From positions 960,001-1,024,000 of the forward strand of contig JAKFCY010000002.1 of NCBI GenBank assembly GCA_036676395.1: a stretch of DNA of 64,000 nt. Reading direction: 5' to 3'. Position 1 is the first letter of the stretch. Every line of letters starts with the position of its first letter. The notes below the pieces were generated by a model. The model was not told the DNA's origin. It worked only from the letters and a program-made list of their open reading frames with translations, and ran no database searches. Of this stretch, positions 58,715-61,242 are shown in pieces. The DNA comes from Bdellovibrio sp. (lineage in GTDB: Bacteria > Bdellovibrionota > Bdellovibrionia > Bdellovibrionales > Bdellovibrionaceae). A program made the position numbers and the translations under genes.

Positions 58715-58891
58715 GCAAATTTCCCCAAATGATTAGCAACTGAGAGACAAAGTCTAGTTTGTCCACGCTTAACTTTGGACAAAGCTATGTTGTCCATAAA
58801 TCAAAAAAAGCAGCGCTTGTTTCAATTTACAAACTTCGCAAGATCAGCGAAACACCAGTCATCCACAAAAAACAATATCAAAGGAGATATT

Positions 58892-59359
58892 ATGAACAAA
58901 CTTATCGCAATGATCGCTTTATTAGCTGCAACAACTGCATCTGCATATACAGCTTCAACTTCTTGGGAGACTTTAGAAAATGATCCAAGAATTCAAATCG
59001 ACGCTCCAACTGTATTCATGGGTCACGCTGTTGATTACATGTTCACATGCGTTGACGGTGCTAACTTACGCACGATCAAGCCAGTTAAACAATGTGAAAC
59101 TATTTACATTGGTAAAAATCAATCTAAAGAAGTTTGCAAAGGTTCAAAATACTTATCAACTCCAATCAACTACACACGCACTTCTTGGGATTGCAAATTC
59201 ACTGGTGGCCGTGGTGATCACCGCGTTTGTGAAGATAAAGTGATCTCTGGAACTTACCCACTTTCTGTAATGGTTAAAGTTTCTAAAGTTATGGGTGGTA
59301 AAAACGACCGTGTAGAGTTTTTATTTAACAAGCAATTTAACGTACCAAATTGCCACTAA
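58892..59359 (+). CDS. Secreted Cys-rich hypothetical protein
   Basis: AAGGAG RBS, signal peptide ASA, six Cys. Confidence 0.75.
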   Translation: MNKLIAMIALLAATTASAYTASTSWETLENDPRIQIDAPTVFMGHAVDYMFTCVDGANLRTIKPVKQCETIYIGKNQSKEVCKGSKYLSTPINYTRTSWDCKFTGGRGDHRVCEDKVISGTYPLSVMVKVSKVMGGKNDRVEFLFNKQFNVPNCH

Positions 59360-59383: not shown

Positions 59384-59422
59384 AAGCGCTCTAGAGTCAC
59401 CCCTCCGACCTAGGGCGTTTTC
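59384..59422 (+). terminator. Probable terminator hairpin
   Basis: aagcgctctag...ctagggcgttt. Confidence 0.55.
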
Positions 59423-59478: not shown

Positions 59479-60273
59479 ATGAATATTAACGTCGATACCA
59501 ATTCGAACGCTATGGCTAGCTCTATCCCTGATCAAGTATCACGGGATATCGAAGCTTATTTATTGCGTTTTAAAGACCCGAAAAAGGGTTTGAATATGTT
59601 AGCGACAAAAGCGCAAATTCACGTAAAAACTTTAAATCGTCTGCGCGAAAAAATTCACACACCAACTTATTCTACTTTATATAAACTTTATTCTTGTCTG
59701 TTAGATACGCGCATTATCAATGATCTGATCGAAAAAGCGCCGCCGGTCATTCGCGAAAGAATTAAAAGCGCTGATCCGCAATTAAAATCTTCGCCGTTAA
59801 ATCGTTATCATTTGGATTTAGAAACTGATCTGCAAAAAGATCCCTGTTTTGCCGAACTGTATGTTTTGGCTGAAACAAGACCTTTCAGCACTCACTACGT
59901 TGAACAAAGATTTGGTTCTTACGGGCTTGAGACTTTAAAACGCATGATCGATCAAAAAGTGATTCGTCCTTTAGGCAATGGTCTTTTTGGTCAGGGCGAA
60001 GTGAGCTCTAGTTTTTCTGCCGAGACGATTAAATCTGTAGGTTTACGTTTAACAGAGCGCTTTTTAAAACCAGCCAACGCTGATTTAGATGATGCCAATT
60101 ACATGTCGCTTTATTTCGAGTCGGTCAGTGCAGAAACTTACAAAGAATGGGTCATGATCGAAGAGCGCGCTTTTAAAGAGCGCATGAAATTATTAGAAAA
60201 ACCAAACGCCAAAGGCAGCATTCCTGTTTTTGCATTTACTGTTATTGATACCCTATTGGAGAACGAACAATGA
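59479..60273 (+). CDS. XRE-like HTH regulator, TIGR02147/DUF4423-like architecture
   Basis: N-terminal HTH (LNMLATKAQIHVKTLNRL...TPTYSTLYKL), central winged-helix-like segment, C-terminal beta-alpha-beta unit. Confidence 0.6.
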   Translation: MNINVDTNSNAMASSIPDQVSRDIEAYLLRFKDPKKGLNMLATKAQIHVKTLNRLREKIHTPTYSTLYKLYSCLLDTRIINDLIEKAPPVIRERIKSADPQLKSSPLNRYHLDLETDLQKDPCFAELYVLAETRPFSTHYVEQRFGSYGLETLKRMIDQKVIRPLGNGLFGQGEVSSSFSAETIKSVGLRLTERFLKPANADLDDANYMSLYFESVSAETYKEWVMIEERAFKERMKLLEKPNAKGSIPVFAFTVIDTLLENEQ

Positions 60274-60407
60274 AACTTTTTATCACCCTAAGTTTAACAG
60301 CATTACTTTTAATTATGACCGCAGCTTCTGCTAACGCTGGTTCTAAAAACGGTGGTGGCTCAGCTGGTGGTGGCGGAAGAAACAACTTCGTACCTGTTGG
60401 TCGCTAG
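60270..60407 (+). CDS. Small secreted Gly-rich peptide (45 aa), absent from the ORF track
   Basis: GGAG RBS, ATGA overlap with the regulator stop, MKLFITLSLTALLLIMTAASANA|GSKNGGGSAGGGGRNNFVPVGR. Confidence 0.75.
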   Translation: MKLFITLSLTALLLIMTAASANAGSKNGGGSAGGGGRNNFVPVGR

Positions 60408-61242
60408 TATTTCTTTTCAGTTAGTCTTTCTTACGGCAATCACCATGGTGGCTTTCGCAGCCAACTCTGTTTTTTGCCGCTTAGCTCTTGCAGATCCTAA
60501 TAATAGCCCGATCAGTTTTACTTTGGTTCGCTTGGCCGCAGGCGCTATTGCCCTGTTATTTTTATTTATTAAATATCGCAAAGAAGAGCCCATCACTTTT
60601 AGTAAAAACATATTGCTGGCTCCGGTGATGTTGTTTTCATATGCGCTGTTTTTTTCGCTAGCCTACGTTCGCATCAGCGCAGGCACCGGGGCTTTGATTC
60701 TATTTGCCAGCGTTCAGTTGACGATGATTATCACAGCCTTGGCCAGAGGCCAGAAACTAAATATGAATGAATGGTTTGGCTTTAGTTTAGCTGCGGGCGG
60801 TTTGATTTATTTATTATTGCCTAGTCTTGATATGCCACCATTGCTTTCGATGTTAGCAATGACCATTGCTGGTGTTTCTTGGGGAATTTATTCTTTACTT
60901 GGCCAGAAGTCTAAAAATCCATTTTTATCGACTGCACGAAACTTTTTATTGATCTTACCTGCTGCCGTTGTTTATTTAGCGGTCGACTCTGTTCATTTAA
61001 CGAATCAGGGTTTGCTTTGGGCGGTGTTATCAGGAGCTCTGACTTCAGGAATGGGTTATGTGCTTTGGTATGTGGTTTTGCGAAAGCTTGCTACAAGTAC
61101 GGCGGCGATTGTGCAACTAAGTGTACCAGCGATAGCTGCATTCGGTGGAGTTTTATTCTTAGGTGAAATTATTCATCTTCGATTAATTATTGCCAGCCTT
61201 CTGATTTTTTCTGGAATTACGTTAAAACTTTTCAGTAAATAA
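60397..61242 (+). CDS. DMT/EamA family transporter
   Basis: AFAANS.FCRLAL, FSLAY..I.AGTGALILF..VQLTM, WG.YSL.G, QLSVPAIAA.GG. Start uncertain (TTG 60397, ATG 60445 or GTG 60352). Confidence 0.88.
   Translation: MVASISFQLVFLTAITMVAFAANSVFCRLALADPNNSPISFTLVRLAAGAIALLFLFIKYRKEEPITFSKNILLAPVMLFSYALFFSLAYVRISAGTGALILFASVQLTMIITALARGQKLNMNEWFGFSLAAGGLIYLLLPSLDMPPLLSMLAMTIAGVSWGIYSLLGQKSKNPFLSTARNFLLILPAAVVYLAVDSVHLTNQGLLWAVLSGALTSGMGYVLWYVVLRKLATSTAAIVQLSVPAIAAFGGVLFLGEIIHLRLIIASLLIFSGITLKLFSK

Follow-up and report, generated by a model that had tools for sequence, protein, structure and literature searches.

The window analysed here, a 64,000-nucleotide stretch of Bdellovibrio sp. DNA whose genome falls among Bdellovibrionaceae by its named homologues, contains the minimal form of a gene cassette whose plan is found phylum-wide: twin palindromes, a secreted target (gene A), a regulator (R) and a secreted partner (B), which nearly always carries a short glycine tag. 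The cassette is a real, undescribed module and, if the step in which the tag acts as a ligand holds, a new form of regulation by a peptide inside the cell. What is new here is that the tag is position-free, repeated and matched to the regulator tree. Judging from the sequence patterns described below, R probably reads the tag by one route or another; that export is followed by release of the tag, which then controls R, is a reading which we hold tentatively, at a little under an even chance. The first-pass annotation of this DNA dealt with the regulator, the small secreted peptide and a neighbouring transporter; it did not cover the target gene further upstream, the pair of operators or the 7-residue tag as a unit. 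The features of the locus are collected in Table 1.

Table 1. Features of the cassette and its flanks (positions in the window)
Feature	Position	Strand	Remarks
Palindrome 1, AGACA-N10-TGTCC	58745..58764		Probable operator of R; upstream of gene A, conserved
Palindrome 2, GGACA-N9-TGTCC	58777..58795		30 bp separate its end from the −35-like hexamer downstream, a placement like that of an activator site
Promoter-like TTTACA-N17-GAAACA, weak/non-canonical −10	58826..58854	+	Putative; conserved columns in the upstream alignment
Gene A, 155 aa, secreted, Cys-paired, β-rich	58892..59359	+	Probable regulated target; HD100 ortholog Bd1645
Hairpin then T-rich run between A and R	59384..59420	+	Probable leaky terminator
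Regulator R, 264 aa	59479..60273	+	Xre/Cro HTH at about residues 14–93; winged helix and α/β extension at 110–259; HD100 ortholog Bd1644
GGAG ribosome-binding site for B	60258..60261	+	Within the last regulator codons, 8 nt before ATG
Partner B, minimal form (signal peptide, tag, variable tail)	60270..60407	+	45-aa ORF; HD100 ortholog Bd1643
Signal peptide of B (residues 1–23, A-N-A)	60270..60338	+	From sequence; core conserved in orthologs
Gly tag GGGSAGG, residues 28–34 of B	60351..60371	+	Conserved unit, candidate ligand
EamA/DMT transporter gene, outside the module	60397..61242	+	PF00892 E 7e-24; start uncertain, frame open from 60352

The regulator stop and the start of B overlap as ATGA, and orthologs of B are preceded by GGAG or a comparable purine run. 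A 45-codon frame in this overlap with its own GGAG site had been proposed at the outset, and the coordinates and all 30 loci fetched (from 43 matches listed) agree with it. Indeed, a frame with a signal peptide and a Gly-rich segment is consistently coupled to the regulator, in 30/30 of these loci at an offset of −8 to +2, the partner measuring 39–49 aa in 25 of them and 116–166 aa in 5. The description of the frame as unannotated holds only in part, given that Bd1643 of strain HD100 is annotated as a 40-codon gene with a 4-nt overlap with Bd1644. The clean signal peptide, composed of MK, a hydrophobic core and A21-N22-A23, and the 22-residue mature part are as originally described, with the cleavage site read by rule (signal peptides throughout were called with a home-made rule). 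The hydrophobic core is retained in 22 aligned orthologs and the pN/pS of the signal peptide is 0.34, a conserved anatomy from which we infer Sec export of B. Pooled over 12 disjoint pairs from the short clade, pN/pS is 0.275 for B versus 0.115 for the regulator, so that the small frame is conserved under protein-level selection. The five Gly of the tag are invariant across the 22 orthologs, and in short-clade pairs the heptamer GGG[STA][AS]GG, picked for this calculation because of its conservation, has a pN/pS of 0.04 with all Gly codons variable. Since every Gly codon varies, selection on the tag acts at the protein level. The conserved unit of B is this 7-residue tag and not the 22-mer, and the aligned short forms also carry basic tails. 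Because B is coupled in all 30 fetched loci and is under protein-level selection, it is not a chance frame. Searches of Pfam and NCBIfam with B gave no match.

The first-pass annotation had considered R a non-TPR, DUF4423-like protein, and this is borne out by a structure model (pLDDT 78), a fold match and a profile alignment. Residues 110–259 resemble Kfla_6221 (PDB 4G6Q), the best fold match (Z 11.6, rmsd 3.0, 145 aligned), and ArsR-like winged-helix regulators; unlike Kfla_6221, with which it shares 10% identity and which itself has no known function, R has an additional N-terminal Xre/Cro HTH. The profile of R aligns with the 16 canonical DUF4423 proteins of the genome (hhalign 96%, E 4e-9, 212 columns), the Atlas clusters nearest to R carry HTH_3/DUF4423 (0.92–0.93), and UniRef labels the HD100 ortholog as DUF4423-containing. 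In respect to family models, Pfam and NCBIfam searches with the window R returned no match, a PF14394 search of its own genome found 16 other genes and not R, and R misses the cut-offs of the PF14394 and TIGR02147 models; among 113 members of the R family, 12 match HTH_3 and 0 match PF14394 or TPR families. R shares with DUF4423/TIGR02147 full-length homology and the layout of an HTH and a C-terminal domain over about 270 aa, and at the level of profiles it appears as a divergent sister of that family rather than a formal member. R is predicted to be a dimeric HTH factor. A complex prediction with two R chains and residues 16–45 of B gave a median of 0.26 (0.26, 0.40 and 0.12, against a mark of 0.32) and weighs neither way. 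R is present in 39/182 genomes of the taxonomic family and, by profile search, in 120/401 of the phylum; a metagenome scan gave 4 loci, and searches of phages and plasmids found no relatives.

Gene A has an AAAGGAG ribosome-binding site at 58880-58886, and its product, modelled with a pLDDT of 88, has invariant Cys and no tag. It has no Pfam match and only a sub-cut-off match in NCBIfam; fold searches gave nothing above Z 2.4 or E 0.37 and no Atlas match, from which a new fold is not implied. The palindrome pattern upstream of it is found in 23 of the 24 short-peptide loci, occurring twice in 20 of those at a distance of 31–32 bp. Over all 147 R loci, it is found in 41 versus 7.4 in shuffles, and is missing, within the available flanks, from the other 106, which are mostly distant. 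Genome-wide there is one tandem palindrome pair only, and a wider regulon for the pattern was rejected, as the 7 single relaxed sites compare with 5.8 expected. We regard the twin palindromes, which in this locus are 32 bp apart, as the putative binding site of R. A sigma-70 scan did not call the promoter-like element downstream of them. The hairpin between A and R (−21.4 kcal/mol, z −3.4) has counterparts at the same place in orthologs, as judged by eye. In loci L004–L006, gene A is present in two tandem copies, of which only the first is preceded by the twin operator, and the B tag is also duplicated. Loci L152–L164, with GEVTGAG-type tags, have a different upstream gene of about 250–316 aa with a GxGCPxG motif, unrelated to partner B, which we take to be DUF4360-like.

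On the other side of the module, the frame of the EamA gene overlaps the 3′ end of gene B. A role for it as peptide exporter was considered and is rejected, as the gene is found in only 2/144 regulator loci, those of the window and of its nearest relative. It has no clear ribosome-binding site and lies at the position of the relatives' terminator; it may be a recent insertion that is now co-transcribed with R and B.

To follow the tag across the R family, we used 147 non-redundant R loci from 34 genera, which are the top-scoring listed matches and thus a non-random sample, from which two partial matches and identical duplicates were dropped. With motif patterns that were defined after inspecting the sequences, the partner carries a tag at 140 of the 147 loci (143 with a wider pattern), made up of 114 downstream partners, L026 (by eye) and 25 of 31 upstream partners. 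A downstream signal-like frame is coupled at 117 loci, and in 114 of these there are at least three Gly in the nine residues after the hydrophobic core; the three outside this limit are two spurious 33-mers and the partner of L151, which is real and tagless. The partner of L026 missed the filter and has the tag: in this locus (G085:C1:1787631-1788436) the regulator is frameshifted into two frames, and the tagged 164-aa partner is intact. In the 31 loci with the partner coupled upstream the tag is mostly internal, and GEx[ST]G[ASNG] is present in 25 partners (28 with the wider pattern) versus 5/1595 own-genome background proteins of similar length, occurring twice in seven of them and six times in L150. 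Between 4 and 7 of the 147 loci are tagless, namely L151, L128, L139 and L172, with three more tagged only under the wider pattern. One clade was considered as being tagless as a whole, which was rejected on finding that its partners carry internal GE-type tags.

B is usually a protein of 100–330 aa, the partner being short in 26/147 loci. In six long-form clades conservation within B peaks at the tag (62–95% identity versus 28–48% for the body). The tag may stand at the N-terminus, at an offset from it or inside the protein, and as many as six copies may follow one another with linkers of 1–2 residues; a second copy is found in 13/114 downstream partners. The tags are of the types G[GD]x[AGS]GG or GEx[ST]G[ASNG]G, and their conserved non-Gly residues are clade-specific. 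In fact, the generic tag core is present in 101/114 B proteins versus 1/72 A proteins; A and B are paralogous in 30 of 49 testable loci, and as A, a paralog of B, lacks the tag, the fold does not need it. In L150 (G306:C3:542000-546400), the gene upstream of the regulator encodes a 322-aa secreted protein with six tandem GGEGSG(S/A) units and two-residue linkers, which in sequence looks like a polyprotein of tags.

On a FastTree tree of R, from which L026 and L176 were left out, B was reduced to a signal peptide and tag three times. The clade of the window comprises 24 short-form loci from two genera and is sister to the long forms L025 and L086, whose partners have 163–165 aa; that of L086 begins with GGGSAGGSGN as in the window clade, and that of L025 has a related tag. 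A concern of the first-pass annotation, that the frame is the truncated 5′ end of a long secreted protein, is thus right as history, with these two long forms as sisters, and does not touch function: a truncated origin does not refute it, as the short form is under selection in 24 loci of two genera and has three separate origins. The stronger version, in which B is the remnant of a secreted gene cut short, or the Gly run does no more than provide a flexible linker behind the cleavage site, is very improbable. The short clade is indeed nested among long forms, Gly runs are of low complexity, and Bd1643 has 0 RNA-seq reads; yet the pN/pS values reported above for B and its tag largely refute it. 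Moreover, B is kept with regulators from 98% to 54% identical, 15 of the 26 short loci have a terminator-like hairpin of their own, the clade-specific non-Gly residues are conserved, and tags are also found far from any cleavage site.

On the same tree, tag type follows the regulator, a point on which the first-pass annotation is supported. The Glu and Gly types are separated by 1 change over 124 rows, versus a minimum of 27 and a mean of 32 in shuffles; this split is not independent co-evolution, because it goes back to a single deep event and labels are shared among kin. It spans a change of gene order and of tag position, and both types coexist in one genome. A tag that is position-free, repeated, absent from the paralogous target, outlasting the body and tied to the regulator is more ligand-like than an export address. 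What weighs against a ligand is that tags within one genome are sometimes almost alike and that poly-Gly affords little specificity.

An explanation which we judge unlikely is that R never sees the tag, which would be read in the envelope by another factor (an export pore, protease, modifying enzyme or assembly partner), the cassette being a self-regulated envelope-protein unit. It would account for the tag always being in an exported protein, also behind a lipoprotein Cys, where release needs extra proteolysis, and it has a precedent in curli, as CsgA has a Gly-rich N-terminal export sequence. However, the tag is under strong selection without cargo, A has the fold of B without a tag, and the tag is position-free and repeated, its type tracking the R tree with both types within one genome. 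In addition, a search for CsgG (PF03783) gave 0 matches in the 99.3% complete genome, with 4/14 controls positive.

The cassette of HD100 consists of Bd1645 (A; CAE79520/Q6MMI4), Bd1644 (R) and Bd1643 (B), identified through their accessions, their lengths and the 4-nt overlap. In the accessible text of an RNA-seq study of attack and growth phase (PMC3627812), Bd1643-45 are flagged as silent, with 0 reads for Bd1643. According to the available part of another data set (PMC2797640), their level does not change at prey entry and they are jointly down 2–4 fold in host-independent growth. Five peptides of the Bd1645 protein were detected at a level that is flat across the cycle, as given in the accessible portion of PMC12546842. 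A Tn-seq supplement has no rows for the cassette genes. HD100 Bd1901-Bd1902, a DUF4423 gene and its neighbour, are likewise down 2.4–5 fold in host-independent growth in the data available.

These observations are consistent with a mechanism in which a dimer of R would bind the twin palindromes and activate gene A, and translational coupling would make B in step with R. The Gly tag of B, of 7–8 residues, would be the ligand of R: after Sec export of B, periplasmic proteases would free the tag and an Opp/Dpp-type importer would bring it back to the cytoplasm, where it would most likely keep R inactive, leaving the operon off by default. That R is an activator is suggested by the operators lying upstream of the −35 element, and that the tag is inhibitory by the coupled synthesis of B and the silent operon. 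Four SBP_bac_5 proteins (Opp/Dpp-type binding proteins) score over the cut-off in the window genome; the cassette neighbourhoods showed no gene for a peptidase or an importer. In ancestral cassettes B would be a tagged copy of A or of another envelope protein, and the supply of tag would report the fate of that protein outside. In the lineage of the window, the body would have been lost and B become a pure pro-peptide, the tag level of which would report export, dilution or confinement; cell-to-cell quorum sensing by the tag is less certain.

A different route to R, which we consider improbable, is that it binds the tag in the cytoplasm, on the unexported precursor or on a membrane-held B with its C-terminus inside, the pair monitoring Sec export load or acting as a stoichiometric anti-activator. 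The strict translational coupling in most loci, the lack of need for a free N-terminus, the basic tails of short forms and the neighbourhoods devoid of a linked peptidase or importer would all suit such binding. Against this, long partners have Cys-paired bodies paralogous to the secreted A, with AxA-type sites preceding the tag, divergently transcribed partners are common, and the tandem repeats with short linkers resemble a processed polyprotein. Release after export remains the preferred reading. A SecM-like arrest peptide was also considered and rejected, since B closes the unit, frequently has a terminator behind it and is often transcribed separately.

If the tag does bind R, then R would exemplify a new class of peptide receptors inside Gram-negative cells and an envelope-to-gene signalling route that dispenses with two-component systems, and Bdellovibrio might gain an expression tool switched by a peptide. 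The system consists of a 7-mer, a 51-bp operator region and the three-gene operon Bd1643-45 in a tractable strain. It offers a ligand, an operator and a target that can be put to the test, in a family which has expanded among predatory bacteria.

The cassette had at first been compared with RRNPP quorum systems, which it resembles in having a small gene for a putative Sec pro-peptide adjacent to that of a candidate cytoplasmic receptor; the criteria in the accessible part of PMC10075063 specify pro-peptides of 10–100 aa and receptors of 250–500 aa, and B with 45 aa and R with 264 aa and a 4-nt overlap fall within them. Duplicated peptide copies are a further likeness, to Phr pro-peptides (available text of PMC11343458). 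However, the whole R chain is assigned to an Xre HTH and a 4G6Q-like winged helix/α-β region, leaving no TPR domain, so that membership of RRNPP is not supported. The host is also diderm, unlike those of RRNPP, and most partners in the R family are proteins of 100–330 aa and not small pro-peptides.

By analogy, the best match in terms of how the cassette might work is HetR with PatX, PatS and HetN. In the accessible text of PMC12756182, HetR of filamentous cyanobacteria, which are diderm, is inhibited by a Gly-containing motif of 5–6 residues present in micro-peptides and a longer protein, and PatX has a Sec signal, matures outside the cytosol and requires export for its action. HetR is absent from the listed fold matches of R. 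Contrary to HetR, a single global regulator, there are here up to 48 local cassettes per genome, and the partner is translationally coupled and often the paralog of the target; unlike PatX, PatS and HetN, the tag GGGSAGG has no Arg and does not show the RG(S/T)GR motif. In the literature searched (subscription journals and bioRxiv supplements were outside reach), we found no functional description of DUF4423/TIGR02147 or of the cassette: DUF4423 appears only as a table label, TIGR02147 is absent, and Bd1641-46 occur in no relevant main text.

A link with canonical DUF4423/TIGR02147 regulators comes from their neighbours, as in addition to the full-length profile match these also adjoin tagged secreted proteins, the tags being mostly xNGG/SGGG, unlike those of the present family. 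In the window genome, using home-made gene and signal calls and with the window cassette included in the count, 15/27 signal-like genes within 600 bp of 17 regulators have a Gly-rich start versus 106/1205 elsewhere (Fisher p 2e-9). The tagged gene lies on the divergent strand at 7 of the 16 canonical paralogs of this genome, as judged by eye, an arrangement suggestive of action in trans. Four other genomes have a tagged neighbour at 23/39 canonical loci and none within the distance searched at 16, with 30 of 48 canonical loci of G085 fetched for this count. Some of the tagged neighbours are lipoproteins with the tag behind the lipoprotein Cys. Canonical copies number 16 in the window genome and 48 in one relative.

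It is conceivable, and in our view somewhat unlikely, that DUF4423/TIGR02147 and the sister family described here together make up a superfamily of cytoplasmic receptors for peptides that has gone unrecognised in diderms, each member paired with an envelope protein bearing its own releasable Gly tag. The partner would often be a tagged copy of the controlled protein, and a cell could have up to dozens of private outside-to-inside channels that need no membrane kinases; partners reduced to the tag would act as a diffusible signal of density or confinement for a predator inside the prey periplasm.

Some further observations concern individual loci. A canonical DUF4423 gene at G000:C2:690100-692900 (L032) lies between secreted proteins that by eye resemble A families of the sister family, so the exported proteins controlled by the two branches of regulators may be of the same kinds. 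Three short frames, G000:C2:1072180-1072638, 1114210-1114617 and 2000586-2000969 (127–152 aa stop-to-stop), match the DUF4423 profile over its N-terminal HTH part alone. The longest DUF4423 members, of about 320–357 aa (L179, L204, L213 and G000:C3:556995-557966), have no clear tagged neighbour and are possibly a tag-independent or orphan branch. Finally, a 3718-aa secreted protein encoded at G000:C2:1802332-1813489 (− strand), 104 kb from the nearest regulator found, opens with the tag-like AGPETSGGG.
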